DNA of 62,911 nucleotides, filler included, from Bipalium vagum (taxonomy: Eukaryota): the NCBI GenBank assembly GCA_037834085.1. It is 3 parts of 3 records of this genome, joined end to end, with 100 filler letters (N's around TTAATTAATTAA, not from the genome) between each part and the next. Parts side by side here need not be neighbours in the genome. Positions count along the whole stretch, not along the records: positions 46,166 to 62,911 come from JBBMKC010096098.1; 2 more parts are not named here. The stretch is one strand, 5' to 3'. The notes beneath the pieces were generated by a model. It saw only the letters and a program-made list of their open reading frames with translations, searched no databases and was not told where the DNA came from. The position numbers and the translations under genes were made by a program. Positions 29,251 to 62,120 of the stretch are shown one piece after another (position 1 is the first letter of the stretch; the number at the start of each line of letters is the position of its first letter).

Positions 29251-29394
29251 TGTTTTTTGTCTTTCAAAATTGATATGAAAAAATATAACCATATATTAAA
29301 ATCAATGAAATCAATTAAAACTGTTCATACTCTTTATTTAATTATGCGAAAATTTAAAGACGATCAAACAATTGGTGGAAAGATTACGAAAGAT

Positions 29395-29850
29395 CAACCA
29401 TGTTCGAAATTACATTCTTTATGAATTCCGTAAAGAAATAAAGGCTACAAAAGAAACTTCCAATGTGTTATATCCAAAATCACTGAAAGTCAGAACATGT
29501 CAACATTTGTTTTCCTGATTTAAAGGAAGTATCGATTTGGATGACTGTCTGTGCTTGGCAAATCCTTTTAATATCAATGAGGATTTGACATGGCCATTAA
29601 TTGATGAACACATTGAGGAAAAACATTGACTGAAATGGAAACTATAATGGGAAATGACAATATCCCATCATCTAAGGGCAATTATAAGACTAATTATTAC
29701 ACTAGCAAAAATCTGAGCGACTAAAAATCTGTACATCACTGTTATCAAAATATCAGAACGTTTTATTTTTGAGTCGGATTGTCACTTGGGATGAGAAATG
29801 GGTTTCATATGACAATCTCAAGCACAAGTACAATGACTATTTTGTGGCGA
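29395..29850 (+). mobile_element. mariner N-terminal half remnant
   Basis: HVRNYILYEFRKEIKA...LKVRTCQHLFS*FKGSIDLDD and SRIVTWDEKWVSYDN. Confidence 0.85.
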
Positions 29851-30849
29851 ATTCTCATATTTTTAGGTTTACCAAAGACTTAAATAAATTAAATGAGAGA
29901 ATACTACTACTAATAATTAATTATTAATAATCATGAAAATATTAATTATGAAATATTTCTTTAATAATAAAATATTTTTGGGGTGTTTATGATTCCGTAT
30001 AGATAAATCGAGTATCAGAAATTTTGCAGAGAAATAATCGAAATACTTTTTTTCTGTTTGCAAATGACCGGAACGACAGTTTACCTAAAGGAAGTTGATG
30101 TAGAGAAGTATCAGAACATTTTTGGGAAGTCTTTATCTCACATTCTAGTGGTCGAACTGTTGTAAAAATACAATATTTAATTATATGGCTCCTGAGTCGA
30201 TTAACCGAACATTTCGGAAAAGAAAATTTCAATCAGAAGAATTACTAATATCCATTACCCGGAATTGTCAAAATTATATATTGGCAGATGATACATCTTG
30301 CTTACTTAACAAAATTATCTAGATCAACTTTTTAATATTTTTAAGGTACCTAAATTTTCTTATATACCTTTCAGTGATTGTTTATAAAACCAAATTGGTC
30401 TAACAAAGGAACCAAGGAACCATACCTGTTAATCGTTTTTTATTTTTTCAATTTTTCCTATTCGGAAGATTTTTTTATTAGTCGGTAATTTATTATTTCA
30501 GCGTAATTAAATTGATCCATTTTAACAGTTATTTAAAAACTTGAATAAATTGAACGTTCAGGTTCAAGCCGATCACAACGAAATAGAAAATGATTTCTGA
30601 TAATTACAAGAAAACTCATTCAGTTACTCTGCCTAACGCCGAGGTTCCATATGTCATCAAAATTGGTTTGAAATTCATTTGACATATAAATATTTTCTTT
30701 AATGATTCATCTTTGTGTAAAAAATATAATTTTATTCAAAATTTGCATTAAATTCAATTAACAAAAATAGATACTTAAATACAGAACATTAAATAGAATT
30801 CATAAATTTTCTGGATTATGGGTACAATGAGAAATGCGGATTTTTTTTA

Positions 30850-31150
30850 ATAACCGAAGCATGCTAATTTCGAAACAAAAATATTTTTTCAAAACATGAC
30901 CAATGTTATCCATCTTTTTCTTCTTTTCTTCCATCTGTCAGTTAATTTATGGATACCAACCCAAAAGAACTTTTCTGATTTCTAGGAGAACCATCCAGAG
31001 ATCCAATTTTGGACATCTTCGTACGATTTGAAGTGCTGCTCAAAGATCCATGTGTCATTGAACGAAACAGGTGAAAATCGGAAAAAGCATGATATGATGA
31101 ATATGGCGGGTGGGTGAGTGAGTACTTCCATTTCCTGTCTTTAAACATTG
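30850..31150 (-). mobile_element. mauritiana (Mos1)-like mariner C-terminal remnant
   Basis: LTHPPYSSYHAFSDFHLFRSMTHG..EQHFKSYEDVQNWI...FFWVGIHKLTDRW. Confidence 0.85.
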
Positions 31151-32465
31151 CTTTTAACCCATAACTGATAATAATATTAAAGACTGAATCAGCTGGGATA
31201 TTTTTTTGGTATAACGTATAACCCGACTGCAAAGAATCAGGCCATATATTCCTGTTCTGGTAGCCTTGGTCCATGTTAAAACAAAATCTGTCTGATTTGC
31301 ATCATTTCATTTGTCCTTTGAAATTTTGATGTCAAATTTTTAAAATAAACTTTGTTGAATCTTTTAATTATAAATGTTATGTAAAACTGATTTATTACAG
31401 ATTTTCACAATTTCTGGGTCCGAAACTTTTTAATTAATTATAAATAATTTTATATATATTATAATTACAAAATCTTTTTTAATAATAATGATTTAAATAT
31501 TGATAGCTGTCTAAGGATTGTTGTACAACTCCAACAATAATTTTTCTAATACGTCTTGAATTTAAGAAATTTTTAGTGAAACTGTAAAATTTTCATGAAT
31601 TGCTCCAATGATTATATAACTGCTTACTCCATATCTACCATTATTTTTCTTAAGAAATGCAATGCATGTAGATTAGACAAAAATAATTATATTTGAATTC
31701 TCTTACAATTAATCAAAATTAATCGATTAACACATTGAAATTGTATTTGACTAATCGAAAAGTATAATTAGTACCAGCCGTAGTTTAATTATTTTATTAT
31801 TAATGCTTTTTCATATTTATTTCTTCCTAGAATTAAATATTTATATATAATATATGTATCTTAACTCCATAAGATACGGATAATTCGCTATAAAGAACGA
31901 TATTTTTATGAACTTTTTTATGATTATTAAATGAAATATAAGAAATGAAATATAACACCATCTAAAACTTTAAGTACAATATTTATATCATATTTATTAT
32001 TATTTTAATCATATCCCACTTAGTAAAATTGTTAAAAAATAGAATGGTGTTGAATTAGCACAAGTCCTGGAAATTGATAAAAGACTTATTTTCAAAAGAT
32101 GTAATGATGTAATTGCTGAAACATTTTAGGTTCTAATGACGTACTAATCTTTCTATTTACTCTTTTTTCCTTCCATAAAAATCTTAAAATTTTTAAAATT
32201 TCATTAAGATTTTTTAAACCATTACGATCTAAAACTAATTATAAAGGAAAACTTTCAGTAACTTTCCAAATTATACAAGTCTTCTATTTTAGACCCTATT
32301 TTCTTATGATTTTCTTTTGTAGATCTTGTTACTACATAAATACTGCATAAAAGTCACTCTGGACACTAAGAACTAAGATCCATTCTGAAGGTGAGCTCTA
32401 AAACCTTAATTTTTCCGACGATCAAGTAGAGAAAGTATTCCGTATTTATTTTATTCATTGTTGTC

Positions 32466-32640
32466 AAAATCGAAGATGTAGACGAATGCCAGATTTGTTA
32501 TGAAAGCGAAGGCATGTACAATGTCGTTCTTTTTACTGAATATCTTCACGGATTCTATAGACCTTAAGAGATTTTATATTAAAATATTCAATGTCCATTG
32601 GATTCAGAGTGGTTACCTAGGTTTGGTAAAAGAATATTTA
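32466..32640 (+). pseudogene. RBX1/RBX2/APC11-like RING-H2 pseudogene fragment
   Basis: KIEDVDECQICYE..YNVVLFTEYLHGFYRP*EILY*NIQCPLDSEWLPRFGK compared with RBX1 VDNCAIC...VAWGVCNHAFH...VCPLDNREWEFQKYG. Stops and C/H-to-Y changes are present. Confidence 0.6.
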
Positions 32641-32935
32641 ATGCAAATTATTTTGAAGAATTAAAATATTAAAAGTATATAATAATATCAAATATTTATA
32701 ATATAGAATTTACGTATTAAGCAAATTCTTATTTTTATCAAACATTTTTGAATATTTTTATTATGTTAATTTTAAATTTAGAATAAAAAAATTTTGGAAG
32801 TACGAAAACTAACGAGGTTTAGGAGACATCAGAAGGTTAGGGAAAGGTTTTAAAACTCGGAAGCGAAACTGAAGAACCATTTGTTTTAATTAATCAAATA
32901 AAAACATAGTAGAAGTGCAGGTATCTAAACCTGTC

Positions 32936-33155
32936 TTAAAACCAAATCATCAAAAATATTATCTTTACACATTGAAAATTAGTTTTATTTTTAGTTTTCA
33001 TTATTATTCCGCAATAAATCCTTTGATTCAAAGAATTCTTGTAGAGAATTACGGGTTTCATCAGTGCTTTCAAGTACTGCAACGAACGGAACAGGTGATA
33101 ATCTCTTGGAGCTAAATCTAGAGAACATTGTAGATGATCGATATGATTCATCATT
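32936..33155 (-). mobile_element. mariner C-terminal remnant
   Basis: HLQCSLDLAPRDYHLFRSLQY. Confidence 0.8.
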
Positions 33156-33419
33156 TTTTTTTAATTCTCATTCTAGAATCTAGATAGATGCAGATTGGAA
33201 TGGTCATCTAAAAACATAATTTGACTTCCATGACAGAATTTCAAAGCGATAATTCCAAGTCATATACTATATGTCCGACAATTATCAACAAATTTTAAAT
33301 TGAATTATTTTATTTAGCAAATAAATCTGATCGATATTATTATTATAAGAATTTTTATTTTTATATTTTAGTCACTACAGATACTGAATCAGAAATTCAA
33401 ATTATCCAATGTTTTAAAT

Positions 33420-33760
33420 CAGGGAAATGATCAACATCAGAAATTCGTATTTTCAAGAATCGTCGTGGTGTGCGGAATGATCCATTTAATGCGTCAACAG
33501 TAATGAGAACTGTGAAGAAATTTGAAGAATCTAGTTGTTTTGCCCACCAGAAACCTAGAGCTAGTTGACCATCTCTAGTGAACGAAAGCTCGTTTTGACA
33601 GTGATGCCTTCAAAAGATCATCTCTTAATGAATTTGAATCATCATCATGTAGAAAAATATCCAGGATATCAGGAATTCCGAAGACGTCAGTTCATGAAAT
33701 TTTTCGTCAGAATCTAATGAAATATCCATATTGTCTTCAAATGCATCAAGAGCTCCATTA
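33420..33760 (+). mobile_element. DD41D/rosa-like transposase N-terminal remnant
   Basis: STVMRTVKKFEES...SCRKISRISGIPKTSVHEIFRQNLMKYPYCLQMHQEL. Confidence 0.75.
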
Positions 33761-34415
33761 TATATCTCGTTTAAAAAAGTTTTTGATTTTATGAAATTTA
33801 AATAATACTTATTATTTTGCGAATATCTAAATTTGATAGTTAATTAGAACAGGTAAAAAATTTAACTATTGATGAAATAAAATTTGAATAACTTAAATTT
33901 GTAGTTTATATTATGAGTTTTAATAAAGAGCATATTCGTCATTTTATAATGTACCAATTTAAGAGCGGTATGTACTGAACTGTGGAAATAATATATCTGG
34001 GCCATATATCCAAATGTCATTACTGTCATTCAAAGCCCGAATTGGTATAAAAAAATTTTTGATCTGAAGAGTAATCCAAATTGGTATTTTTAAGGCATTT
34101 TGAAAAACAATAATTTAAATACCGCCAATCGATATATGATTTAGACTACACTTTTTGGTTCGTATATAAATTAATTTAGAATCATGTAAGAGTCAGGAAA
34201 AATTTACAAGCTTATTGATTGGTATTTCCCGCAAACTGAGATCGAATAGAATTGTGATATTCTTATCAAGCATCACTACCCAATTTAAATTTCTACCGTA
34301 GCTTATAAAATGGTGAGACATCAATGTTTTTGTACATTGGGATCAAATTCACGAGAATCAAAAAATTAAAACCGAACTCAATGCTTGGCAAGTAACTTGG
34401 CAATTGCCCAAAATA

Positions 34416-35515
34416 TTAGTTTGATGCAATATAAATTCAGGTTTTTGATGTTTTGTATTCAGGTCAAGTTTATATCAATAAATTAATACGTTTAGATCAA
34501 TAAGTTATGTCATTTGTATGCTTATCTTATGCTCTATAAATATTTGTTTAAAAATTATTTTTTGTCAATAATTTGGATTTTATTTACAGATGTCGAAACG
34601 CTATTTCCGCAATATTTTCTTCTAAGAGTACAAGCTAGTACAACCTTAGTGCACCTCAAAGCACTCGAAATATCAACGATGTTTGGGGTCAGGCAAGTGT
34701 CAACAAATGTACGATGCAACGTTGGTATCACAAGTTTCGTTCTGTCTATATCAGCCTCGATGATGATCCTCATGCCAAACGTCCATCAGGCATTAATAAT
34801 GAGAAATTGAAACAGTTAATCGAAGATGATAATCACAAAACTACACGAGAAAATGCTGAAAACCCCACGTAAACCAATCAACCGTATTTCATCATTTGAA
34901 GAAAATTGGAAAAACCAAAACACTTGAGTCGGAATCGTACGAATTGACAGAACAACAAAACTTGGTTTGAAGATTGCATCCTTCCTTGTTTGATGAAACA
35001 AAAAATTATAACTTCCGATGAAAAGTGGATGACAAGCGGCGACGTTCGATCAACAACCACAACTCTTTCCGAATTCGACATTCCACCAAAAGAATGTTAT
35101 GGTGACTGCTTATTTAGCTGCAGCTTCTTGAATCAAGGCGAAACGATAACGATAGAAGTACTTCCAATAAATTGACGAAACGCACCAAAGGGTAAACGTA
35201 TGTTCAGCATTGGTGTTCAGAAAAGGACCAACTCTACCCCATGACAACGCTCAACGCACGTCACATGAAGTTGAATAAATTGAACTACGAATTTTTTCAA
35301 GTTGACGATACCAGAAACGCCTTCGCCAACTTCCTCGCCTCCTGAACTCCGGATTTCTATACCACAAGTATAAATAAACTTGTTTCACGTTGATAAAAAT
35401 TTGTTGATTCTAGTGATTGTTATTTAAATTAATAAACTTGTTTATAAGCTGAATTATTAATTTAAAGTTGAGATTTAAAACCTGCGTTTATATTATTATT
35501 AATACATCAACCTAT
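34416..35515 (+). mobile_element. cecropia (Hsmar1-like) mariner with both TIRs, decayed
   Basis: TIRs ttagtttgatgcaatataaattcagg / cctgcgtttatatt...acatcaacctat. Interior RNINDVWGQASVNKCTMQRWYHKFRS, IITSDEKW, RKGPTLPHDNAQR and TPDFYTTSINKLVSR. Confidence 0.88.
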
Positions 35516-35944
35516 TATTATTAGTCGTATTAAGTGTAAGAATTAGTTCAGTCCGTTTTTTAAAGATGGCTATCAGTAGAAGAATACTTTAATAATTACA
35601 CCTTAATTCAATTGATTTAGAGAGATTAAACATCTGAAAATTTTTAGTTAAATTATAGTGATTTTTGATACAAAAAATAGTGTTTTATTACATCAATTAT
35701 GAACACTTCAAATAACAAAGCAACATTTGCGGGAAGTTCTAAATTTGTTTCAATTGAGATAAAATTACTGTTGAAGCTCATAAAAGCTCCTTGGAGTGTA
35801 TTGAGACAAAACTTCGAATGATAAATCATGTGAATGGTTTCGACATTCATTCGGACCGTTTGTTTTAATACCGATTATTGTTTATTTTTTCAAACTATAT
35901 TAACTTTAATTTTATTTAGTTTTTGCTTAGAATGTATTTAAGTA

Positions 35945-37072
35945 TTATGGTGTCCCATAAAAATTGACCGTTTCTGATATATCAACATTAAAGCTAAATA
36001 ACGTTTTTTTAAAGAATTAATTAACTATTGATTTTTTGTATAAAATTTTGTATAAAAAAGATTGCTTAGAATTAATTTATATATATTTGTTTTATTATTC
36101 ATTTTAGCGCTCAATTAAAATGCCTACAAAATATGAAATTCTTGTAATTCTTCTACATTATTGGAAAAGACAATTGTCAGCTGTTGACTCCACCAGATTA
36201 ATAGTAGAAGTTGAAGGTCCAAATGCGCTCAATGAGAGGAAAACGAGGCGCTGGTTTTCAAAATTCAATTCCGGTCACACCAGCCTCCTACGTGCAATAG
36301 GTTCTGGAATACCTTTGATTTTCAAAGACGATGATCTAATGGATTCTATAGAATCAGGTCCTTCTCAATCGACTCGAGAATAATCATAGGTCATTCAAAA
36401 TTCACAATTCATCGTCACCTTCGTACTCTTGGCAAAAGAATACAGAGCCCCTTGAATGCACCCACATCAGCTGACAGATGCGCAAGTTGATAAACGATTT
36501 CAAATTTGTCAAAGGTTGTTGGATAACCCGTTAGACAAGGGTTTTTCCAAAGAATTGTCGCTATGGATGAAAAATGGATCTTCATTAATAATCCACACAA
36601 AAAATGGCAATGGTTATCAGCAAACGAGTTACCTGGTGGCAGAGTACAGTAGATAGATTTGGAAAGAACATGATTTCTGTTTTCTGGAACTACAACTGAA
36701 TTTTATCTTTTGAAATTCTTCCAGTTGGTCATAAATATTAATTCAGAGATCTATTCTGCACAATTGAATCGACTTCACCAGGTTCTCATCAAAAAACATC
36801 CTGCTTTAATCAACCAGAAAAGAATTCTATTGCAAGCTGACAACTCTAAAAAAACTTTGAGAACATGAATGACCTGGAAAAGTAAGTGCCTATCGATGTT
36901 TTTTGACTCTAAATCTCAAGGATAGTATGAAAATGAAATTCTCAAAATTGTAGAACATTGGCCTCTTGTTTGTGAGAACGATGGATTTTATTTTACTTCA
37001 TAATTTCATAATGTACAATAAAAATTTTGTGTTGTATTTATTGAATTAAAACGGACATTTTTTATGGGACAC
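35945..37072 (+). mobile_element. nested mariner with TIRs
   Basis: TIRs gtgtcccataaaaattgaccgttt / aaacggacattttttatgggacac. ORF 36120-36383 MPTKYEILVILLHYWK...RRWFSKFNSG, then PHQLTDAQ, IVAMDEKWIF and NQKRILLQADN. Confidence 0.9.
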
Positions 37073-37941
37073 GAATTGCACGTGCTAATTGATGAAGAGC
37101 AGTGTCAATCACAAAATGAGCTCGAGGAATTGTTAAGTGTTCATAGAAGAAAAATTTCCGTTCGTTTGGCAGCAATAGGAAAGATTTATAAAGAAAAATG
37201 GTTGCGAACTGAAAGAAAGAGATATTGAGAGGCGGAAACCCATATGTGAAATCTTGCTAGAAAAGCTAAAAAGGAAAGGGTTTATGCACCGTATCTTGAC
37301 TGCAGACGAAAATTGAATATACTAACAAAGGACAGAAATCCATTTGTGAACCCGAACAACCGACCACATCGATATCAAAAAGGAACATTCACAACAAAAA
37401 AAGTATTACTCTGTATTTTGTGGGACCAAAATGGTATAGTGTATCACCAGTTTTTAAAAAACGAAACTATCACAGGCAAACTTTATGAACAAATGATAGT
37501 ATTAAACCAGCAATTGAAAAGTAAGTGGCCGGAATATGCAAACAGACACAAAAAAGTTATCTTACAGCACGATAACGCTTGACCACATATTGCGAAAGTT
37601 GTTAATGCCACCTCGGAAATTTTTAAGTGTGACGTTTTACCTAACCCACCTTATTCACCGGATATTGCTCCGAGTGATTATAACTTGTTTCGATCGATGA
37701 CACACGGACTTTCCTGTCAGGACTTTTGGTGAAATAGAAAAATGGGTCAATGAATAGATCCCTTTAAAAGATGAATCAGTTTTTCGTAACTGACTTGCCG
37801 GTCAGATGGGAAAAAATAATAGCAAACGATGGCAAATACTTTAATTAGTTTACATGTGCCTTTTTTTCGAAAAGTCTTTTCATATTATTCTAAATTGTAT
37901 TTTAATATGTAAAAACTGACAGAATTACTTCACACACCTAA
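37073..37941 (+). mobile_element. 5'-truncated Mos1-like mariner with right TIR
   Basis: ELKERDIERRKPICEILL..KRKGFMHRILTADE, KVLLCILWDQNGIVY, KVILQHDNA*PH, PPYSPDIAPSDYNLFRSMTHGL and NDGKYFN*. TIR gaattacttcacacacctaa. Confidence 0.92.
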
Positions 37942-40052: not shown

Positions 40053-40788
40053 TACAGCGTGTATAAAGTCACTATTTATTACAAGTAATAATTGATTTTT
40101 TTTAATTTACTGAAAATAACGTCTGTAATTAATGTTTTCTTTTTTAGATATATTTAATCAAAATGACTACAGAAGAACGAGTATTCATGGTCACATAGAA
40201 AATAAAAGGAGTGGCATGCGAACAAATTACATTTAAATTTAAAAGAAAATTTCTAAAAAAAAAAGGACCAAGAACAAGGATGCTTTTTATAAATTTCAGA
40301 GGAAGAAAATATTTTTGAATATTGTGCATATATATGAATATTGTACAAGCCAAAATCCCGATTTTACAAGCACAGATAGCTCACCTGCAGGAGCAGATTG
40401 AAGAAGCTCTCTTAGAAAATAATTTGTGGAGCTGGTAAGTTTTTATTTTAAATATAATCAAATTTTACTTAATATTTAGGACCGTTACCAATATAAGTCA
40501 AATAGCAAATAATGCAATAAATAGAGCAGCAAGGGGAGATGGACGAGGCAGAGGAGCTGAATAAGGAAATGTGCTCAATAAATGTTTTCTATTTGTTTTT
40601 TTTCTTATTCTCCATCGATAAAAATAATACAGCATAAAAACGAATCGACCAAGACAAGTAATTTGTGGGTTTTTTTTTTACTGATTTTCATATAACAGAT
40701 ATTTTGAATAAAGTTCTTTTCAAATTAAAATTTTTTTAAAATTTCAATTATTTCTTGTAATACATAGTGAATTTTCATACACCCTATA
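40053..40788 (+). mobile_element. internally deleted DD41D/rosa-like element with ~45-bp TIRs and an internal spliceosomal-type intron
   Basis: TIRs tacagcgtgtataaagtcactatttattacaagtaataattga / tcaattatttcttgtaatacatagtgaattttcatacaccctata with TA flanks. N-terminus MTTEERVFMV. Candidate intron 40435-40479. Confidence 0.8.
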
Positions 40789-48290: not shown

Positions 48291-49279
48291 TTAAGTTCCA
48301 AATTTAAGTGGAGCTAAGAATAATTATTATTAGTACTTAATGGTGAAGGTTGCTTTTTATTATTAATGATTAAATAAAATCGAATTCAATTTTTTCAAAA
48401 TTATATATAAAAAAATGGATTTACACACAAGTTGGTGATGATCATCCTTGATGGATTATTTAATTTAGGGCCTTTTATTTTAAAGTTAGAAAAATCTTCA
48501 AGATCTTAACCTCTTAGGTCCTCAAATAAGAAAAATAATTGAACTCACCGCTCTACTTAGCGTGTGAGTTAAGAATAAAAAAGAAAACGGAAAAAGTAAC
48601 AGAAATTAAAAAATTATTTGATCCTCAGGTTTTGGTCTGAATATTTAATTATTATTATTTAAAGGTTATCTTTTTTGTTTACTAAACAAGATTACCGACT
48701 TAAATTTATTTATTTATAATTTTGTTTTATTAATAAAACAATTAATATTGGTTAAAGAGCAAAAATGATATAAAAATTATTATGATCGATAGAATTATTT
48801 TTTATTTAATTTTACTTAAAAGGAATTACATGTGAGCATAAAATTTGAGCTGAAAAGTTTGTATTATCGTTGAGCTACCGGGACTCTGATTTTTGTTCAC
48901 GTGCTCTTTTCTATTTTATTAGATTTTTTGACTTTCTTTCTTGTAGCTCCTTCTTTTATAGCCAAATGTTGCCTTTGTTATTTTTGAATGATGGCTGCTT
49001 TAATGTCCCTGATTCTAGTTAGTAGTTGAATATCTGTGGCAATTGATTGTACAATCGATTAATGTTTCTAATTGTGACAGTTGAATGATATTTCTCTGAT
49101 GAAAAATTATTTATTATAATATTTTTTTGTGTCCTTTATTCTATTTTCCAAGGACTTTTATATTATTTTTATTAATACAGTTATTATTTATTATTTATAT
49201 ATTATTTTAATTTTTTATATTCTTTTTATTTTTAGTAATTTATTTTAAAAATTTTTTATTTTTAGAAACTTTCCCATAT

Positions 49280-49570
49280 TTAATTTGTTTATTCACAAAA
49301 TGTATTAATCCATCAAAGACAATATTACATATAAAAGAAATAAAAAATGAAGGAGTTCGATATGACAAGAGGTTGGTTGAAGTAATACCTTGGGACAATA
49401 AAATGGTTCACAGAATTACTACAATCCCTAACAAGCTTAAAGGTGAAAAGCCAGATGACCGGTAGATGATCTGCCTAGGAAAATATGTCCCAGTAATAGA
49501 CTTAGTTGTTTGGGCGAACGGTCGAGCCTTAGTCGACTTAAAAATTGGAAACAGGTCAATTCACTAAATA
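49280..49570 (+). mobile_element. Gypsy pol RT/RNase H connection remnant
   Basis: ILHIKEIKNEGVRYDKRLVEVI (LGH.I...GV..D..KV.AI-like) and YLGTIKWF. Confidence 0.45.
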
Positions 49571-49665
49571 TTAACACAATTTGAAAATTTTCAGTAAGGA
49601 ATTTCATAAAGAAAGATATGAAAAATAATTTATTATAAAATAATCTTAAAATGAATCCATATCAA

Positions 49666-52600
49666 TTAATTGTGTGATTTGAAATTTTTTATTTCTCCAA
49701 GAATTTCTGAAACAAAAATAATCATAAAAATAATTAAAATAATAGAACCCGTCAAAAAGTTATTTTCATTTGAAGGACAAGTAATACATTTATACTCTGC
49801 GGGAACGTCTTCTTCAACGTACTGTTCTAGAATGGACTTATGTCTCAAAAACAATGGAGATTGTATAGCATTAACAGGAGTTATTCTTTTATCTGGATCT
49901 AATTCTACCATTTGCATTATTAGATTAATGACTATTGATTATCATGATAAAGCTCAAAAACATGAATTAATCAATACCATCATCTGCTTCACATTCCGAA
50001 CCACTTCCTACAGCGTCGACCACTAATAATTGATCAATATCAGTATATCAGAAGATAGTAAAGTTTAAGTTGATAAATATTAATAATTTCATAAACAGAA
50101 ATTAAGATAAATCTATCAAATATTAAAGGCTGCATAACGAAATTTGATATACAAAGTTCTAAACAAATCACGAAAAGAAAGATTTTGGTAATCATAATAC
50201 CAATTATTAAAAAAATGCTTGATTTACTGACGGGTTTGACCCAAAAAATACAATTTGGAAACATGGTTTTGAAAATAATTCGGAAAATCTTATTAATCAA
50301 ATTCTAAAACAGGTTCTATCGTATTTTTATAACAATAATAATATTAATAATAAAATATTCAACTTCGTGGTATCAATTTTCCATGTTTGTTTAGGACATT
50401 CAAAAAAAAACAACGTGGGCAATTCAAAGTCAGATTTTATTAATACAGTAAAGAAATTTTTTTTTCCAGAATGTAGGGCATCCAGAAGGTTAAATATTAA
50501 ATTTTAGATAAATGAGTTTGCTGTAATCAATATACGACTGTTTTATTCATTAACAATGTCTTGGAGAATTTTATTATAGGAAATAAGCTTCATAAATAGC
50601 TAATATAAATAAACGCTCGTTAAAGTAACTCGTCGTCTGTTAACGTATTGAGATTGGTTGTTTTTCGAAATGAATGATTATTATTTGACATGAATCAATT
50701 TTTCCAAGTTCCTGAAGTCTACAATAAACTTATAAAATCTAGTAGGAGACTGTTCATTCAAAAGCGAAAGTTTTGGTTACTCTTTCTTTATTTTTAAACA
50801 ATTGCTTAAACATAAATTTCAGATAATCGTAGTTAACTCTTTGCATGAAGTATAATCAGGTTTTAAGACGAAATCCATTGTTCCATGTATACGATTTCTT
50901 CTTTTTAAAAAACATTGTAAAGGTCAATTTTTAATGTGAGTGAAAAGATATAAATGAGTACAGAAGTTATTTTTTTTAATATTTTTGTTTAAAATAAGCT
51001 ATTTAAACATGAACATAGATTGTAGAAAATAATAAATATTTTATGATCATACTATTTGGTAATATCCGTTAGTATCTATCAATGTATTTCAGTAAATTTG
51101 TAAAGACAGACAGTAAATATTATGTATTATTTTTAGTAGTTATTATCAGAAATGAATCTTACTAAAATTGATTATTTCGGGTCTGATAACGCTTTCTAAT
51201 TTATTTGATGTAGCAGCAAAACTTTTGAATAATGTTAAACCCATAACAGCCTAATTTTACCAATTTATAATTGAAAAAAGCTATAAAATATAATACATCT
51301 TTATTATTCATTTTATTAAGCATGTCTTCTTCCGGCCAACCCATCGTTTTCAGGATACATTTTGATTGATCAGTTTGATTCTTTCCTTGAAACAAAACCT
51401 TTTTGGTAAAAAACTCAGTAAATATACAGCCTGCTGACCACATATCCACTTAAATTTTAAATAAAATTGAAAATTTATAAAATAAAGTAAAAAATACTGA
51501 AAATTTTCAATTTCAATTAATTCAAATAACAAATATATTCATTTTTAACAAAAAACATTGATTTTCATTTTATCAATAAAATAAATATTTCGGTATACTG
51601 TTTTTGATTTTACTGATTATAACTTTTAATTGGTTATGATTATTAAATCAAAATTTTTAAAAACAATAGTTTAATATTAATTTTTTTACTCGTCGATTCT
51701 TGCTATCAAAATAAATTATTAAGATCTCTAGTTTTTCTTTAAAACAAGGACTTCTGGTTACATTCTTCAGATTTCACTGCTTGCATTTCTCTCGCAATAA
51801 TATTTTATAGAATTTTATAAAACCTGTATTTATTTATTATTTTATTTACTATCTGATAGATAAATTCGTTATGTATAAAATTAAAAATATTCAAATTAAC
51901 AAGTTTTCCTATTTTAATAATCATAAAACTTACGGTTCTTTTATAATAGTTTAAAACTGATAGATCAATTTATAAGTAGCATTTTACTAAAAAATTTAAA
52001 TAATATACATAACATAGAAAAATGAATATCTAATCAAGTAGGATTAATAAATTCGAATGGAAATACAAGTAGAAGAATTATATGTGAAATCTGGCTCTTT
52101 AAACAATTTGACTTACTTTTCGTCTTTCGTGTAATTTAATTAAAGGTATTCTTGCTATAAGTTTTCAGAGAAACCTATTGATTATAAAAAAATTTCAGAA
52201 AATTCAGCTATACCACAAATGAGATAGTCAAATGTAGAACTATATTAATTAAAATATGTAAGATATTTTGATTGTGGCAAGAATTCAATCAGTATTTTAT
52301 CAAAATTTTCAGTATTTTAATTTTAATAATCAATTGAAACTTAAACTTTCGTGTCACAAACATAATACAATAATATCATAATCGTAATATTATTTCTACT
52401 TACATAACTACTTACAATATTTGAGTAATTCAAATAAATAATAAAAATTGTTTATTTTCGATTAGAAGTTTATAAATTCACATTATTGATTGACTTTTGT
52501 GACCACTATACGTGTATTGGATCAAATATGATATCTTTTGTTTTATACTAAGGTGTAAAACTATAATATTAACTAATATTATCTATTGAAGAAAAATTTA

Positions 52601-55600
52601 TTAAATAAAATGTTTAAATATATTTTTCACTGAGATTTCTAAAATGATTTCTTGAATAATTTTAAAAGACGAAAAAATTTAGAAAAATATGGATTTTCCA
52701 GTCTTACCTTTCAACAAATATTCACAAGATGAATTTAAGGTATTAGGACTGTTAATAACTGGAAAAAGAATACTGTAATAGATTTGAAAAACAAAATATC
52801 CAAATTAAAATATTTTAATTATTAAATATAAGACTAATATAGAATCAGTAAAGAAAAAAATCGTTGAAATATAAAAAGAATAATTAAAAAGACCTAGTCA
52901 GAAACTGATAAATATTTACCTTAACTTTAACCTTTTCTCTTATTGACAAATCAATTTTGAAAAAGTAAAAGATAATAAGCAGATATTTCTGATGGCTAGT
53001 TTTAAGTTTAACATTAAAAACTGTTGCTCTAGTAGTAATTCAAATCTATATAACAATAACTTTTTAGATAAATAAATAATAAAATACAAATGTACAAAGT
53101 AATCAAATGATAATTAAATTATATAAGTAGTGTGTTTTGATAAATAAACTGTATTATTATGATTTTTCATAGAATATGTTTGGACAACCCAAAGTCTCCA
53201 AATTTTAAATAAAATTTCTTTCTTTTTACTTAAAAAAAACAAAATCATTAAATAAAATTAGAAAATAAATTAAATTATTCACGGAAAAAGTCAATAATCA
53301 CAAGTATGATCAATAACAATATTCAAATTTTAAAAATCTGAAGAAATTTAAGATACATAAATTGTACATTTAAAATATAAAATATTTGAATTTCTAAAAA
53401 TAGTAACGGAAAGTCATTGACTTAATATTCCAAGCAAAAATAAATATTTGAAAGAAAAAAAACAAAAAAACTGAATTTGAAGTAAAAATTGGCTTATCTT
53501 TAGTCATAATACTCAACAAAATTGAGATATATTTCATACCAGTTTAAAATTACCCATGAAAAGAGAATCCATCCTATTTATCTTACAGACACAAAACAAA
53601 AAGGAAAAAAGCTTTAAAACCTAAAGTTTATCGTAAAAAGTAAACTAATGATTAAAACAAAAATTATTATATGAGTTAAATTTAGTTATTTTTGGGTCCA
53701 AAATAAAATTAGGATAATAATAACTTTTTATATAAACAAATGGTACTCTGCTACTCTGCTAACAAAATTAAATTAATATTTGATGAATCGATAACTATAT
53801 TTATTTATTTAAATACTGAAGCTTGATAAATATATAAGGAATTAAATAATGTAACTAAAATCTTAGTTTAGTTAAAATTTAAAATTATACACACTTATTT
53901 ACTATTGAGAAATAAAAATTTTAAATAATTTTTGATTTTTATCAGGTAATTTATTAATTTATACTTCTCAAGATAATTTTTATATAATTAAAAATTAAAA
54001 AACTAACAATTAAATATTAAAAATTACTAAATTTTAGAAATTTAAAATGTTTCAAATTTTAAATAGTAAACTTAGATTTTAATACAAGGTGTTTATTGTG
54101 TATGTTGACATTTTCTTTTGAAACTATAATTGATAAAATTTGTTTATATGAATTAGAACAAAGGTTGAAAAGCTACGGCGACCAGCATATAAAGTTGAGA
54201 CCATATACTGATGTTAATTTTGTGCGATTATAATTTTCGACAAATTCGATTATTGATCAATAATTTTAAGATTTAAATTTTTACATATAATTTTATAATG
54301 AATACTGATGTGCACTTTGACAGATACACTGTCATGTGAAAGTAACCTTGAATAAAACTTTAGGCTTTGTTTATTATTCTAGTAACAGGCGTGGTAGACG
54401 ACCCTGAATTTCGTACACTTAGTTAAGTTACTCGTACTCATGGTTGGTGTTTAAATCCTAAGTTATACTAAAATTTTAAATAAGAAATCTAAATATTAAT
54501 ATTTCCCATTTGTAAAGGGTCTTTAATTACAAACACTAGAAATATAATTACGTTTTTTATTTGACAACATTTGACTTATATTATTGAAATTTACATTTTT
54601 GACCAAAATTTTTAGACATTTATTTAACTATGATTGCTACCAAGAAAAGAAAGATTGAGGACGAGCAACGAATTGTTAATGACTAATAGACTATTTAGTA
54701 TTGCTTTGTGTGCCGTGAATAGATGAGCATCTGTAAAGAGTGCAACTTAAATGCAGCATTAAATGAAAATTTAGGTTTCGGCTTAATATAAAGAACAGTT
54801 TTAACTAGTCTTTAATACATGATTCTACAACTTCTAATCATTATAATAATTCATTTAAATAATTTTTAAATGTAATGTTTACTAGTTTTCCCATGGAATA
54901 AAAATTCAAGTTATTCTGTGAAATGCCAATTTTGAAAATCTTAAGGAGTTGATCTGCAAATAGAAGCAACATTTTTCACCCAACCATCAAGTAGACAAGC
55001 AATAAAAAATACCGGAAAAGTTTAAGAAAACTAGTAGAAAAATTACTTAGACATAATACATAATAATATTTTTCTTATTTAATAATGTATTACAATTTCT
55101 TAAATTATTTTGAACAAACAGATCATCAAAAATCCAATATTCTTGTTTCAGTTAATGTATTTTTCATCATTTATGTAAAATTAGAAGAATTAAGGACGTC
55201 GACATTTTGAGTGAACTTACAAAAACTTTTTGCATCTTTTAAAAGGTCATATTTTTAAACTATCTAGTAAAGATTTTTGAAAAAAATGGAAAAGTTCGCG
55301 CAAGGCACCACAGTTGTAAAGAAATAGGAAAGTTTTATGAAAAATTTGATGAATCTTTTTTGAAAAATTTTTGTTTTAAGAGTATCCTACAATCTACAAA
55401 CATACATGCACTTTTACCATTACAAATATTGATGCATAAATTCTGTTTGTTTAAAATGAAAATTCAACTGTTTTACGACTTTTTGAGTTTTCTCAATTTG
55501 AATACTTATTTTTCTGAGAAATTTTATCCATATTGAATATTTATCGCAACTTTTAAAGTTTTTTCGTGGATCTTTAATGAGTTGTTAATTATCTTAATTA

Positions 55601-58600
55601 TTATTATTATCTTTTTTTTGGTTGATCACCTTGATTATCTTTTGGACGCAAATCTAGAAAATTTGTTTATCTATAGTTTTTCTACTAAAAAACCGCAATC
55701 CTTTAATAAGCTAAATTTTTAAAAAATAACATTTCTAATAAGCCAAGGGTTATATGGGGAAATGATAAATTATATACAAATTATATATATTAAATATAAA
55801 GAACAGTAAATTATTTTGTTATTATTAATTAAATCAGCTAACCAGCCATAGTGTATTGAGATATACAGAAAACTTCAAGAGGCCGATACCATCTTGTGAC
55901 AACATAATCTGTTAGATCATCTTGTTTGTCTCTAGCAAGTCCAAAATCAAGAATTTTTAAATCCAAGTTATCATTTATCCCAATATTTGATGGTTTCAGA
56001 TCCCGGTGAATAATACAACAATCGTAGAGGTACTATAATTAAAAATATAAATCTTTTTAAATGTTAAAATTATTTTGGTTTAAAATAAAATATTTAAAAT
56101 TTAATTCAGCCTACTGATAGTTGACATACGAAATTGTTTTTGAATAATTTTGAAGAAAAAAATGAAGACTATAAGAGTTCATCTGTACTATTAATAGAAG
56201 TAAATATTTTCTTATTTATTAATAAAGTCTATGTTAAATAATAGTAGGCATTTAAGCAATTAGATAAATATTATTATAAAAAGAATTTGAATTGAAAAAT
56301 GTTCACTTTAAACAATTCATGAATATCGACATGTCATACAGTTGAATATATCGGTTATTTTTATTGGCGTGAAGTATAATTATATACATAGGAATATTAA
56401 CCAATTTAATAAATTATCATAAGAAAGCTGTGTTAGATGGTGTCAAGAAATTTTCAAAGATTACATTATAAATCGTTCAGAATAAGTCCACAATATTGTC
56501 ACTAATGACAAACCTATATTCATTTGTACAACCTGAATATTAAGAAACTATCCTGTGAATAAGTTACTAAAAATTATTCGGACTAATAGAAAACCGAGTA
56601 AATTTCATTTCGATTAAAAAGCACTGGTAACTGTGGACTTAAATTGAAGAGCTTTCATCAATGAATAATATATTATTTTCTATCAGAATTCATCTGTGAA
56701 ATTGGAATTGGTCTAAATTAGAAAATTATTCTTCATCAAGGCAATGTTAGTTATCAACAGACGAACCAAAAATTTATTTCTTGCTTAGTATAATGCGGAA
56801 TTTTATCCCAATCATTTTGTTCTCTTTCATTTAAGGTAACATTCGACTATAGTTCTGAATTTACTCTTAGTAATATGATTCGGAATATTGAAAATTCATA
56901 TCTTAAGTCAAAATCAGTACTTACAATTAAATTCTAAATGGTTATAATAATAAATCCAATACACTTTATAAAGTTTATACTGTAAAACATGTTTCTAGGA
57001 TATTCAAGTGTGTTGATATCAACGATAATTAATTTTAAAATATTTTTTCAAGGCTTAAATGTTTTGTCAAATACTAGATTCAGAACATCAAACAGCAGCC
57101 AACTTATGTATAAAAGGAAAATAAAAATAATTACCCTTTAAAAATTTAAAAATAATTAGAAAATATCTCGATAATAAATAAAATATAACATTTTAAGAGA
57201 AGATTTTGAGAAAATTAACATTAATATATAAAACTCACTTAGATTAGTGGATTATTTTACAATCCAGAAAGAAATATATTGAAAACATTTCTGTTTTTAA
57301 AGCGAATGATGTTTGACCAGCGACTAAGTTTTCATTAAGATATTAAGTGATAAGAAAATTTAAAATATTAATTAGAAGAATCTCTAATTTTACTAAATAA
57401 TAAAAATGAAATGAAAATTATCTCTGTATATTTAATAATTGTCCTGTAAGATATGATATAATAATTATTGCTTGCTGTACGACCTTATTGAATTTGTGGA
57501 TTTGGTTTACGAATTACATATTGGTATCAATCCCAAATCTAAAAACCATTATCCATATTATGATTCAATATATTTATAATATTGAATTCTTGAACCAAGC
57601 TCTCTTATTTTAGAATAAATTTTATTCACACTGATATATTTGTTTTTAATTTCCAAATAACAAAAATTAGAGTACTCTTTTTTTTTGGAAAAGTTACCAA
57701 TAAACCAGGAAAAAACTTAGGAGACAACTGGAAAAGCGTTAGCAGGATCAGATAATGAAAAAAGTTCAAAAATCGAATCGATAACATCAGCAAATTGGTT
57801 TATTTGTGTTAATTTTTAAAGATCAGAAGAATAGGATTAAATAATTGGTCCTATTTCACGGAATTGATCCCAAATCAACAATAAATCAAAACAATAATGC
57901 AAAAATGTCTAAGAAAAAGACAGAATTAAGTGAACTCAATCGAGGAAACCCGTGAAAAGCCCAAACTTTGGGAATTATCTGACTAACTGAAATAATAACG
58001 CGTGCAGTTATCTTGTTTCTTTCATAAAACTAGAATCCAGAGTGTAGATCTTTTAAAATTTTGATCGAGGTTCCTGAAAATTGATATTTTATAAACTAAA
58101 AAAATTTTCCCCCTAATTTCAAAATTCACTCCTTTAAATAAACCTCCGGTATTTCCCATTGATCCAACGAATTCTCCTTTTGTTTCTATTCTTTTCAATT
58201 TCATGACATCTTTCTATTTTTTTCTTCCTATAATGAAACTTTAATGAACTCCAAAGTTCTCAATAGCCTTTGAATTTGATGAACTTAGACCATAACTCAC
58301 AGCTTACAGTTTTGATTGCAATTTATAAGGCCTTCGCTTTTTATTTGACATAATAATCATCTCAAAATTTTCTTATAATTGATATTTTAAGATATTTGTA
58401 TATATTACCTTAGGTACTATAATGTACTTGTTATTCTTAAAGTTTAATAAGGATAAGATAAGAATATTAATAAAATAACTCAGTTAATAATCATAATTTA
58501 TTAAGAAAGTAGCTTAGTAAAATGTAACTAAAATTTGAGCAGATATAAAAATTTACTAACCTTTTAGCTTATAACCAAAAAAACATGGTAATTGTTCTTA

Positions 58601-60535
58601 AAATTATTTACCATATAATTGAATAGTTCAAATGACATTTTTCATTATTATGTCACAAATATTCAATTTATAAGATGTATTTTAATATATATTACTTTCA
58701 ATAGGTTTGAAGTTTTTTAACATAGATTTTAAAAATTATTTAGAATTATTTTGATTTAACTGTCTAATTTTCTGACTGTGGGATGTTACTGACTGCAAAA
58801 ACCTATCAATCCGGGTACGTATCTAAAGCAAGACATTGAGACCTATCCATCAAGTGCCTGGTAACTCCGATGCGCCGACCGACAACAACGTTATGAAACA
58901 CAAAGTCTGGCATGAATACAAGCAGGGGGAATATTTACATATTTTTTATAAATTTATTTAATAATGAAACAGATATTTTATTAAAAATCACTAATATCAA
59001 TTAATCTTCTCGTGACATCCGTTTATAAAATTCATAAGTTGAAAATATATAAGGTATATAGAGGGGGTCCATAAAAAATATCGTTATTACGCATTTTGTG
59101 TCGTTAATTACTTTAAAAAAATGACATTTTTAATCAACCTCTCTATAAGTAGTATACTTTTAATCGGTTCAGTCTGGTACATTTAGAAAATAATATTAAA
59201 ATTAATATGAATAAATCGAGTAAAATCGAATAAACTAATTTTTGATTCAGAATAAAAAAATATTATATTTGAACTTTTTGTACACAATTAGCTCTTCAGT
59301 TTACCAAAAATATTAATGAAACAATAAAGTTTTAAAATTCATGTATATGTTGAAATAAATATCGAATTTTTAATTTAATGTTTTAAAAAATTTTGTAAAA
59401 ATTAAATTAAAATGATAGATTTATTTATTCAATTTTCTAAAAAAACTTATCAACTTCAAACCTTAATTATAACATTCTTAACTTGTAATAAATGGAATAT
59501 GTTAATAATTTATGTGAATCAAAATACGACCATGCTGACAGGTAATAATCCAACAAGGACAAACAATTGTTAACCGTCAATTATATAAGTTTACTTAGTT
59601 CAATTACATTTAAAATATTGAATTATTAGAACTTCTATTAATATAAATATTTTATCGATTATTGATGGATTATTAAATGAGAGTAAATAGATAAACGTTA
59701 TTTATAATCATTAGTCAAATATCAATATAATTATCTTTTTTAAAATTTAATTTCTTTTATTTAAGTTTTCAAAGCATACTTTTCTTAGAGTTCCAATGAA
59801 ATAATTGAAGTTTTCAAATGCAATCGAAATAAGCAGTTAGTTCATATATTATATTGTAATGTAATTTATTAAGGTTTCTTAAAACCACATTGTATAAATT
59901 AGATTTAAGACATTTAGAAATAAATTTAGTTTTCATCAATATGAAATAAGTCATTTATATTAAATGAAAAATAAGAATAATGAGGTAGAAAATAACTTTT
60001 AGCGAATATTATATATTTATCTAATAAAATTATTATACGTCACTTACATTTAATCCCATCAATAACTGATAAAATATTCGAATAATCTGTTGATAAATTA
60101 GATTATAATTTCCGATGACAAATTTCAAATCATATTGCATTAAAGGAAGAACTAATACACTGAAAAAATAAAGTTTTACAAAAATAAATATTAAAAACTA
60201 ACACTTCTGTTAATTTTTCATTATCATATTTTGAATATAAATCCAATAATGTAAGGTTCTGTGAAATATAAATTATTTTTCATAAAAAAACTACCATACA
60301 AATCGACTGTTTAAATGCTTAAGAATACTTATTTCACGATAAAGTCTTTTGAATTGATCTTTCCTCGGATAAGATAATTTTATACATTTAAGAGCCACTT
60401 CAGTACCATTTAATTTATATATACCACGACTTTGAAAAATATGATACCATAGCTGAAAATTAAATAAACTACTTACCTCACATTACCACCGGTTCCTCCT
60501 CCGATAAAATCTGAAATTTCATATTTATATGACAT
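49666..60535 (-). CDS. p38: p38-family MAP kinase with atypical TDY activation motif; 10 exons, ~351 aa
   Basis: Manually spliced exons, all GT..AG and phase-compatible with no internal stop: 60477-60535, 60300-60429, 60203-60258, 60048-60159, 55843-56032, 51297-51448, 51163-51250, 49978-50022, 49749-49931, 49666-49706 (1056 nt). Protein: [59 protein letters not shown]...[11 protein letters not shown]...[100 protein letters not shown]...[21 protein letters not shown]...KSHN*. The 6-residue spacing between DFGLAR and TxY is p38-like. An additional upstream exon cannot be excluded. Confidence 0.92.
50330..50950 (-). mobile_element. Tc1-like remnant in kinase intron 7
   Basis: Decayed RK..P.L....RL.F and SPDLN-like pieces. 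Confidence 0.4.
54880..55040 (+). mobile_element. DD41D-like N-terminal remnant in kinase intron 5
   Basis: FPME*KIQVIL*NANFEN...QPSSRQAI...KFKKT. Confidence 0.45.
59057..59147. mobile_element. ~90-bp mariner-derived MITE in kinase intron 4
   Basis: tatagagggggtccataaaaaatatcgtt / aatgacatttttaatcaacctctctata are inverted ends with TA termini. Confidence 0.6.
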
Positions 60536-60829
60536 AGCAATCACTGATTATTCAATTATTCTTATGAATTACTAATTATAAATTAGTAATGCTAAATTTA
60601 AACAAATTTAATGATTCGGCTTAAATGTTAAGTAATAAGAGTAACAGACTCAAATATTATATTTTGTATTTCAAACTATCATATATGATTATATTATAAT
60701 TTTTATATATAATAATCCTTATATTTTTAATTATTAAAATTTACAATTAAATAATCTAATTGCTTTCTAGTGTAGATGTAAGAAATATAAAAATAATAAT
60801 TATTAGTACTTAACGATTGAAAAGTTTTT

Positions 60830-61553
60830 TAAATCTAGTACTTTAAAATAAACCAGTTTTTAAATTAAGCGTCTTTAAAGTCAACACGCTTTTAGATGTG
60901 ATCAAACCATTTTTTAGAACATATTTCTGAAGTTTTTCAAATTTTCCAATGGCTTTTTCAGATACATAATGTAATTTCTTTTTGATTGTTTAGAACAAAA
61001 AGAAATTGCAATTGAATTTGTTGGCTGGTCGTGATCTTTTAGCCCAGGATTACTAAAATAATTTTACTCTATCTTTCGTTATTATACTTTCCACAGATCC
61101 TCTCGATAACTTTAGATTCTCAGCAAAACCTGCAATAGTCATTCGTCGATTCTCCTGAATCAATTTCTCAAGTTATTAATTTTCTCATTATTTGATGTTG
61201 ATGGACAAACATCTCTTTCTTCATCATGCACAGATTGGTGTCCCCTTTTAAATTCTGATACCCAGAATAGTATGAATGGCACTTATCTTATAAGCTGTTG
61301 AAAGATTGAACAGAATCTCCTGTTAGGATTGGCCTAGCAAGTTAGAATCTAATGGCACTGCAATATTCAACTTTTGAAAGGTTCTCATCAGACAAGCACA
61401 TATTTAAATGTGGAGATCAATAAAATAAACACACACGAATGTATTCCTTCTTAGTAAGTACCACACACTGATAATTTTTAATGATATACCAATTTTTTAA
61501 AAATTAATATGCTTATTAGGCTTGTCCAGAAACTTTTTAAACATACCAATTAT
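60830..61553 (-). mobile_element. internally deleted irritans-like mariner upstream of the kinase
   Basis: FWVSEFKRGHQSVHDEERDVCPSTS, SYRGSVESII and C-terminal KRVDFKDA*F. Confidence 0.8.
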
Positions 61554-61569: not shown

Positions 61570-62120
61570 ATGAAACTAGCATTCACTAGGTGAGCCTCAA
61601 CATATTTCTGAGTTTCTTCAATATCCTGCTTAGTTTAAAGTTCACCTCATGTCAACCCCTCTATTAATAAATGCTAAATTTTAAATCGCTTTCAATCTTT
61701 AATCGCTGCAGCCTTTTAGGTTGTTTTCTTCATATCTGGTAACGTAATATCTACATATTTTTCTAATTTTATATATCGGTGACATGACTGATCCACTTTT
61801 TAAAATCTGGGGTTTCGATTCCTTCTCTAACAAAATCCTAGTCATTGATGCCACATAACGCTTTTCGTTATCCCACATGACTGGTAATTCATTTGTGCAT
61901 TCACCTGTTTTTCTGAACTGGACAATCACTATTGTATATTTATAAATGTGTATAACTTCTCCCATCATCCTGGCAAACACAACTTGATCTGGTAACAACA
62001 TGAACGCTAATAGTTCCGAGCTGCTGATTATCATACCAAACATAATTTATTAAAAATGATACATCTGTTAAGATCCTAAAAAGTGATGTAAGTAAGTGAA
62101 GCTTACTGTGATTTTAGGAC
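61570..62120 (-). mobile_element. endogenous viral element: chuvirus/gB-like fusion glycoprotein (env) fragment, decayed
   Basis: ORF 61699-62043: SELLAFMLLPDQVVFARMMGEVIHIYKYTIVIVQFRKTGECTNELPVMWDNEKRYVASMTRILL...VMSPIYKI, continuing after a frameshift as EGLT*GEL*TKQDIEETQKYV. This matches the remembered chuviral G pattern GEV.HI.KC.PV.V..R.T..CY.ELPV..N....L.P.TRIL...C....P.Y.I ... LA..GIYT..DL. Confidence 0.75.

Follow-up and report, generated by a model that had tools for sequence, protein, structure and literature searches.

A divergent p38-derived MAP kinase gene with a TDY phosphorylation lip in the Bipalium vagum assembly

The kinase gene and its surroundings

The window, i.e., the whole stretch of 62,911 nucleotides of Bipalium vagum DNA that was analysed (GCA_037834085.1), holds a nine-exon kinase gene on the minus strand, from 60535 to 49666 (Table 1). 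The spliced product is 336 amino acids long, without an internal stop. All eight introns are of the GT-AG type, with lengths of 47, 41, 43, 4015, 4394, 46, 1231 and 42 nt. The start is predicted; an in-frame stop lies five codons upstream of the ATG. The N-terminal extension of about 20 residues found in p38s is absent, and an upstream search with an N-terminal profile gave no exon. The minus-strand frame of exon 5 (55841-56032) reads the 25-residue stretch described earlier, and its lip codons ACA GAT TAT encode Thr-Asp-Tyr (TDY). The glycine loop GGGTGG, the VALK lysine, the helix-C glutamate, the gatekeeper region LVLPLM, HRD, DFG, PLE in place of APE, and YVEEDVP all lie within this single frame. 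The sequence-only reading, which had described a TDY lip, intact catalytic residues and divergent motifs, is thus confirmed on these points.

Table 1. Coordinates of the kinase gene and of its main motifs in the window
Feature	Position	Strand	Remarks
Exon 1	60477..60535	-	Probable start ATG at 60535; Gly loop GGGTGG at 60502-60485
Exon 2	60300..60429	-	VALK lysine K34 (60389-60387); helix C with R48, Y50, R51 and E52
Exon 3	60203..60258	-	Spliced model
Exon 4	60048..60159	-	Gatekeeper L86 (60149-60147), hinge, remodelled docking-groove helices
Exon 5 (190 nt)	55843..56032	-	HRD at 56008-56000, DFG at 55948-55940, activation segment
T160-D161-Y162 lip	55904..55912	-	In exon 5; preceded by a 6-residue spacer
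P170-L171-E172 replacing APE	55874..55882	-	L171 at the invariant-proline position
Exon 6	51297..51448	-	Helix F (D184, W186, G189) and helix G region
Exon 7	51163..51250	-	MAPK insert region, strongly diverged
Exon 8	49749..49931	-	Conserved R278; acidic docking position S295-Q299 (49836-49822) eroded; YVEEDVP at 49821-49801
Exon 9	49666..49706	-	Stop codon; C-terminal helix L16

The host DNA is AT-rich and eukaryotic, with 17-34% GC from segment to segment. Together with decayed Mos1/mariner pieces and the intron pattern, this composition suggests an animal host. A Logan contig of run X1 (12,092 bases, depth 23.3) aligns to 49148-61239, and neither a difference nor a gap appears among the matches listed. 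It shows GAT, and not the GGT of a TGY lip, which makes an assembly slip at the lip codon unlikely; X1 possibly holds the source reads of the same assembly, and its agreement is not independent. With exon 5 alone, p38-alpha and p38-gamma structures are matched at an E value near 1e-17, and the Pfam family Pkinase at 2.4e-15; the reading as a kinase is hence not due to chance. The AlphaFold model of a single exon reached a pLDDT of 42.7, too low to be of use.

Other features were observed in the window. At 61702-62046 on the minus strand, an open frame matches the Pfam family Monjiviricetes_fusion (chuvirus-type glycoprotein) with E 5.4e-12 over about 67 of the 653 profile positions. The summed contig depth at 61579-62000 is about 1,600 vs about 23 for unique contig. 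This element, which precedes the kinase start by about 1.2 kb, is therefore probably repeated, and it is probably degenerate as well. Many decayed fragments of Mos1/mariner transposases (HTH_48, Transposase_1) lie at 29342-37579. A possible small two-exon gene is seen at 40324-40560 on the plus strand, with a 45-nt GT-AG intron (40435-40479) and a product that is helical, then Arg/Gly-rich.

Residues kept and lost

Residue equivalents were numbered by alignment to hamster MAPK14 (P0010). The kinase keeps 51 of the 60 pan-MAPK sites. The equivalents of K53, E71, H148-R149-D150, K152, N155, D168-F169-G170, T180, Y182, E192, D205, W207 and R296 are retained, as are all six phosphate-binding arginines (R67, R70, R149, R173, R186 and R189). 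In the kinase itself, R48, R51, R129 and R153 lie near the phospho-Thr position, and R166 and R169 near that of the phospho-Tyr. Pseudokinases are recognized by the loss of the VAIK lysine, the HRD aspartate or the DFG aspartate; all three are there.

Among the conserved sites restricted to p38s, 13 of 35 are kept and 22 (63%) are changed, the lip glycine included. The aromatic residue of the Gly loop has become a glycine, and the equivalents of W197 and W337 are lost. The gatekeeper threonine is replaced by leucine; in 128 matched TGY p38s, this position holds Thr in 114, Met in 10 and Leu in none. Resistance to SB203580 is established for p38-gamma and p38-delta, which carry a Met gatekeeper. 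Owing to the bulky Leu, the insensitivity to SB203580-class inhibitors proposed from the sequence appears probable.

The docking surface is altered as well, with changes in the groove (Q120>Y, H126>Q, C162>L) and in the ED site (E160>D, D161>N). In the acidic docking site, D313>S, D316>E and E317>Q are read from an alignment that is uncertain here, exon 8 carrying extra residues. This site had previously been placed at YVEEDVP. The stretch is present, but the placement was wrong: the acidic docking residues of p38 (313-317) align to S295-Q299 in both the MAFFT and the pairwise alignments, about six residues earlier. The acidic run YVEEDVP might take over from the eroded docking site.

The rarest change is P191>L at the APE proline. 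Activation segments were matched in 401 cases among 411 fetched proteins, and Pro stands at this position in 401/401. It belongs to the MAPK signature [TS]XX[LIVM]XT[RK][WY]YRXPEX[LIVM], according to the available part of one study (PMC3100106). The kinase follows this signature as far as YR; the Pro is then replaced by Leu, and the final position holds Phe. One residue is missing after the APE helix. The Ala-to-Pro half of PLE has a precedent in five p38s of cartilaginous fish (P0027, P0032, P0035, P0057 and P0095), which have PPE for APE.

These changes bear on the possibility that the protein is a pseudokinase or a near-inactive scaffold, in which the fold and the phospho-lip are kept for binding, and the distorted P+1/APE region and the all-glycine P-loop allow little catalysis. 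The leucine at T+11, where every fetched segment has Pro, and the residue missing after the APE helix point in this direction. CDKL5 (TEY at 169-171) has an identical substitution, P180L, at an equal distance from its lip Thr; it is a pathogenic patient mutation in the accessible portions of three reports (PMC5846859, PMC3385648, PMC12429097). Modelled in C. elegans CDKL-1, it caused a loss of function in the same sources (PMC5846859, PMC12429097), but this loss was only partial, and the phenotype was the weakest of three as far as the text available goes. Moreover, K53, E71, HRD, K152, N155, DFG, D205, W207 and R296 were kept while most p38-restricted sites changed. A pseudokinase or scaffold is considered unlikely.

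The TDY lip among p38-type loops

Long-loop MAPKs with TDY are found in plant group D, in protists and among ERK7/8-type kinases, and those among the fetched rows have spacers of 11-13 residues. TDY, described earlier as typical of such kinases, is not confined to them: short-loop TDY occurs in p38c of Drosophila serrata and in a fungal Hog1-like gene. Among the segments with a six-residue spacer (n=312), 287 have TGY and 25 another lip. Drosophila p38c accounts for 23 of these 25, a set that was deliberately searched for. The lip centre of Drosophila p38c (n=24) is Asp in 17 and Gly in none, and the variants include TDY in D. serrata, SDY in D. takahashii, TEY in D. jambulina and TDH in D. 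melanogaster. A JNK of Orchesella cincta (P0171) is another short-loop non-canonical animal MAPK, with a six-residue spacer and a TEY lip.

A scan of JGI metagenomes for the short-loop TDY DNA pattern, run without a TGY control scan, gave five loci representing two genes (L002/L004 and L001/L003/L005). The first, at about 911-2247 of L002, is a fungal Hog1/MpkC-like gene with His for Trp in the P+1 loop. The second, a MAPK gene of high GC content, has very short introns and Asp for Trp in the P+1 loop; we would guess that its three metagenome contigs probably come from one protist. The available part of a fungal survey describes lip variation as widespread in fungal MAPKs and, within that part, TDY in no fungal MAPK among 173 species (PMC4769017). 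No description of an animal p38 with TDY was found in the literature searched; subscription papers and supplements may hold further cases.

The lip also has to be seen against the divergence of the whole protein. The mean identity to 173 canonical p38s is 32% for the kinase and 46% for p38c, and the canonical p38s share 66% among themselves. With this identity and 22 of 35 p38-restricted sites altered, a changed lip is to be expected. TDY had been taken as a sign of rewiring, a view that does not hold: it is one change among these 22, and it is shared with an animal p38 paralogue and a fungus. There is little reason to deduce a different MAP2K from TDY, given that p38c acts with Mkk3 (see below) and that lip mutagenesis of p38 by Jiang and colleagues in 1997 reportedly altered substrate choice and autophosphorylation, not upstream kinase selection. 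The motif by itself thus matters little. Flies, a fungus and the present lineage each acquired the Gly-to-Asp change in the short p38 lip independently, and p38 copies released from canonical constraint may therefore commonly evolve it.

The kinase might also be the sole p38 in an animal lineage that is unsampled and evolves extremely fast, with an MKK3/6 of its own evolving alongside it. The ancestral intron positions described below are retained, and no second MAPK copy was found within the window. The lack of close relatives fits an unsampled lineage, too. No relative with the same derived residues was found among 1,757 word-index candidates or among the best 150 of 1.84 billion representatives. 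Searches with exon 5 gave only canonical p38s, the best at 69% identity over the matched stretch; those with exon 8 gave no close relative, and the ESM Atlas search returned generic kinase clusters only. Nevertheless, the TGY lip is retained in other divergent TGY-type p38s (rows from flatworms, Logan and ENA), whose mean identity is at least 43% vs 32% here. Furthermore, the named non-TGY short-loop cases of p38 type are extra copies (p38c) or stand next to TGY relatives in the tree (L002 with P0146). A sole p38 is accordingly regarded as an outside chance.

Descent of the kinase

The protein is co-linear with p38, and the six-residue spacer between DFGLAR and the lip Thr is that of canonical p38s. 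It ends at helix L16 and has neither the long C-terminal tail nor the long loop of ERK7/8-type kinases. Since it lacks both TGY and the xPE signature, it is not a canonical p38 and is filed as p38-derived.

The tree comprised 54 rows, namely the query, the L002 product and 52 sequences or domains chosen among the fetched proteins. Alignment columns covering the spacer and the lip were removed before inference. The sampling included one divergent JNK and was without ERK1/2, ERK5, ERK7/8, NLK and plant group D. The starred p38/Hog1/JNK clade (97/95) takes in the kinase, whose branch is the longest of the 54 rows (3.24). This clade also includes the single JNK row, and the place of the query within it is unsettled on so long a branch. 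A union with the long-loop dinoflagellate-type TDY kinases, represented by two rows, was rejected (p-AU 0.0006). A forced union with Drosophila p38c was not rejected (p-AU 0.19); the free tree keeps the two apart. A basic residue at spacer position 2, as seen in 18/289 TGY loops, many of them from flatworms, is a hint only, and the tree does not group the kinase with flatworm p38s.

Database matches differ from exon to exon. The best 60 PDB sequences for exon 5 are p38-alpha and p38-gamma only. For exon 6, p38-delta comes first at 37.0 bits, with CDK11 a close second at 36.9. The best kinase for exon 2 is p38-delta, not significantly so; exon 4 has no PDB match, and the first match of exon 8 is CLK1. 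The kinase shares 30-35% of its residues with full-length p38s, and non-SAPK MAPKs reach 34% identity with it. The non-SAPK profile (272.6 bits) scores above the p38 profile (257.1 bits), unlike in the other divergent SAPK-type controls, of which 7/7 preferred the p38 profile. At 17 diagnostic sites, the kinase has the p38 state at 3, the other state at 1 and neither at 13. Sequence alone is thus nearly uninformative on the MAPK subfamily.

Gene structure is the stronger evidence of descent. Five of the eight introns, introns 6 and 7 among them, match those of the fungal Hog1-type gene spliced from locus L002 in column and phase. Further support was sought in 245 TGY p38 proteins, from whose partial or exon-skipped entries annotation breakpoints were drawn. 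Of 114 breakpoints, 46 fall within 1 residue of an intron of the kinase (expected 8.2). This count was reached in 1/100,000 random draws, with breakpoints that are not independent of each other. Seven of the eight introns coincide with such breakpoints, intron 4 included. The comparison covered the L002 gene and the p38 annotations.

The kinase could belong to another MAPK subfamily (JNK or ERK7/8-type), with a shortened loop and its long branch drawing it towards p38. The non-SAPK profile is ahead by about 15 bits, the diagnostic sites are mostly erased, and the JNK P0171 combines the same spacer length with TEY. Some N-lobe intron positions are common to JNK and p38 genes. However, introns 6 and 7 match a Hog1-type gene and intron 4 matches p38 breakpoints. 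The protein is without the inserts of the one JNK aligned and without a long C-terminal tail, exons 5 and 6 have p38s as best matches, and the AU test rejects the TDY clade examined. Another subfamily is improbable, even more so than a scaffold or a sole p38. Loop length, tree and intron positions together point to p38 descent, and the p38-type origin proposed from the sequence is supported by the clade, by the rejection of the TDY clade and by the shared introns.

Constraint on the gene

The GC content of the coding sequence is 0.40/0.28/0.23 by codon position, the third-position value being equal to that of the introns (0.23). Neither an internal stop nor a frameshift interrupts the 1,011 coding bases, and all 16 splice sites are intact. 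In a simulation of neutral decay without indels, 282, 131, 39, 1 and 0 of 500 copies stayed intact at 0.005, 0.01, 0.02, 0.05 and 0.1 substitutions per site. As neutral copies rarely remain intact, the gene was, barring a very recent death, maintained through essentially all its divergence, in agreement with the earlier claim of an intact gene under constraint. A recently dead or silent gene with TDY and PLE as early neutral damage would fit the 131 copies intact at 0.01 and the repeated element with its viral-type glycoprotein fragment upstream, but it is very improbable, the reading frame being undamaged amid decayed transposons and its changes sparing the catalytic core.

Interpretation

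On balance, we slightly favor the view that the gene is an extra p38 copy encoding a working kinase that is still phosphorylated on T and Y, whose output is reduced or altered and whose partners have changed. Such a lineage-specific duplicate would have evolved very fast under continued selection on the kinase core. It would be expressed, and phosphorylation at T160 and Y162 would still activate it. With leucine in place of the APE proline and no aromatic residue in the Gly loop, it probably has a lower or altered output. The canonical p38 partners would be docked poorly since the acidic site and the groove have changed. The Gly-to-Asp change would then be a tolerated by-product of the release from p38 constraints, convergent with Drosophila p38c, and not a specificity switch.

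A bolder reading is a self-activating p38 offshoot outside the three-tier cascade, with a P+1 preference changed by PLE; in its boldest form, this kinase would be the animal's only p38. The loss of the MAP2K docking site and of the N-terminal extension, with phospho-acceptors and arginine pockets kept, is in line with self-activation. In Hog1 and p38-alpha, a helix C/L16 core (Y69, Y323, F327, W337 and the E328-R70 bridge) suppresses autophosphorylation, and most single core mutations failed to activate mammalian p38s, according to the accessible part of one study (PMC4847175). Four of these five core positions differ in the kinase, with Y323>V, F327>Y, E328>K and W337>F or L read from an uncertain L16 alignment. 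D176>Q is also seen, at a site conserved in only 45% of the canonical set. A literature search gave no direct support for constitutive activity of tapeworm p38. From such residues, self-activation may be proposed as a long shot only.

The gene deserves attention for several reasons. None of the p38-lineage proteins examined is more divergent than its product. It represents a natural experiment in which the MAPK catalytic core was kept and the p38 interaction surface erased, and a Pro-to-Leu change that is a CDKL5 disease allele has become fixed in a kinase. If the protein proved active or independent of a MAP2K, it would show a route from conventional to atypical MAPKs.

Comparison with known systems

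With the long-loop TDY MAPKs of the dinoflagellate type, the kinase has only the letters TDY in common, its spacer being 6 vs 11-13 residues long. ERK7/8 kinases carry TEY and long C-terminal tails in the part of the source available (PMC3100106). Canonical animal p38s (MAPK11-14, PMK-1) and fungal Hog1 share with it the loop length, co-linearity, catalytic and phosphate-binding residues, and intron positions. It differs from them by TDY, PLE, the missing Gly-loop aromatic, the Leu gatekeeper, the changed acidic docking site and groove, the lost W197 and W337, and the N-terminal extension, which was not found. The fungal Hog1/MpkC-like gene L002/L004 also combines a six-residue spacer with TDY and has five intron positions in common. 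It is nonetheless a separate lineage, with 61% identity to a TGY kinase of Aspergillus campestris, its sister in the tree (100/100), and it keeps APE and 57/60 core sites, whereas the kinase has PLE and 51/60.

The closest parallel is Drosophila p38c (MAPK14C; KAH8392646.1 of D. serrata, P0284), which also has the six-residue spacer and Asp for the lip Gly. p38c is an extra p38 copy, as the kinase would be in the favored reading, and it likewise evolved faster and partly lost the p38-restricted residues. As far as the accessible text goes, it originated within Drosophila, with a dN/dS of 0.33 vs 0.07 for p38a and 0.05 for p38b, under relaxed purifying selection (10.1101/735126). In a partly available study, p38c of D. 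melanogaster (TDH) phosphorylated ATF2 in vitro, was inhibited by SB203580, and acted genetically with Mekk1 and Mkk3 (PMC4177744). However, p38c retains the Thr gatekeeper and the APE proline, where the kinase has Leu in both places. Most p38c proteins are without the lip Tyr and its arginine pocket, whereas the kinase retains T, Y and the six arginines. The identity between the two is 30-34%, no higher than to other p38s, and their likeness is read as convergence.
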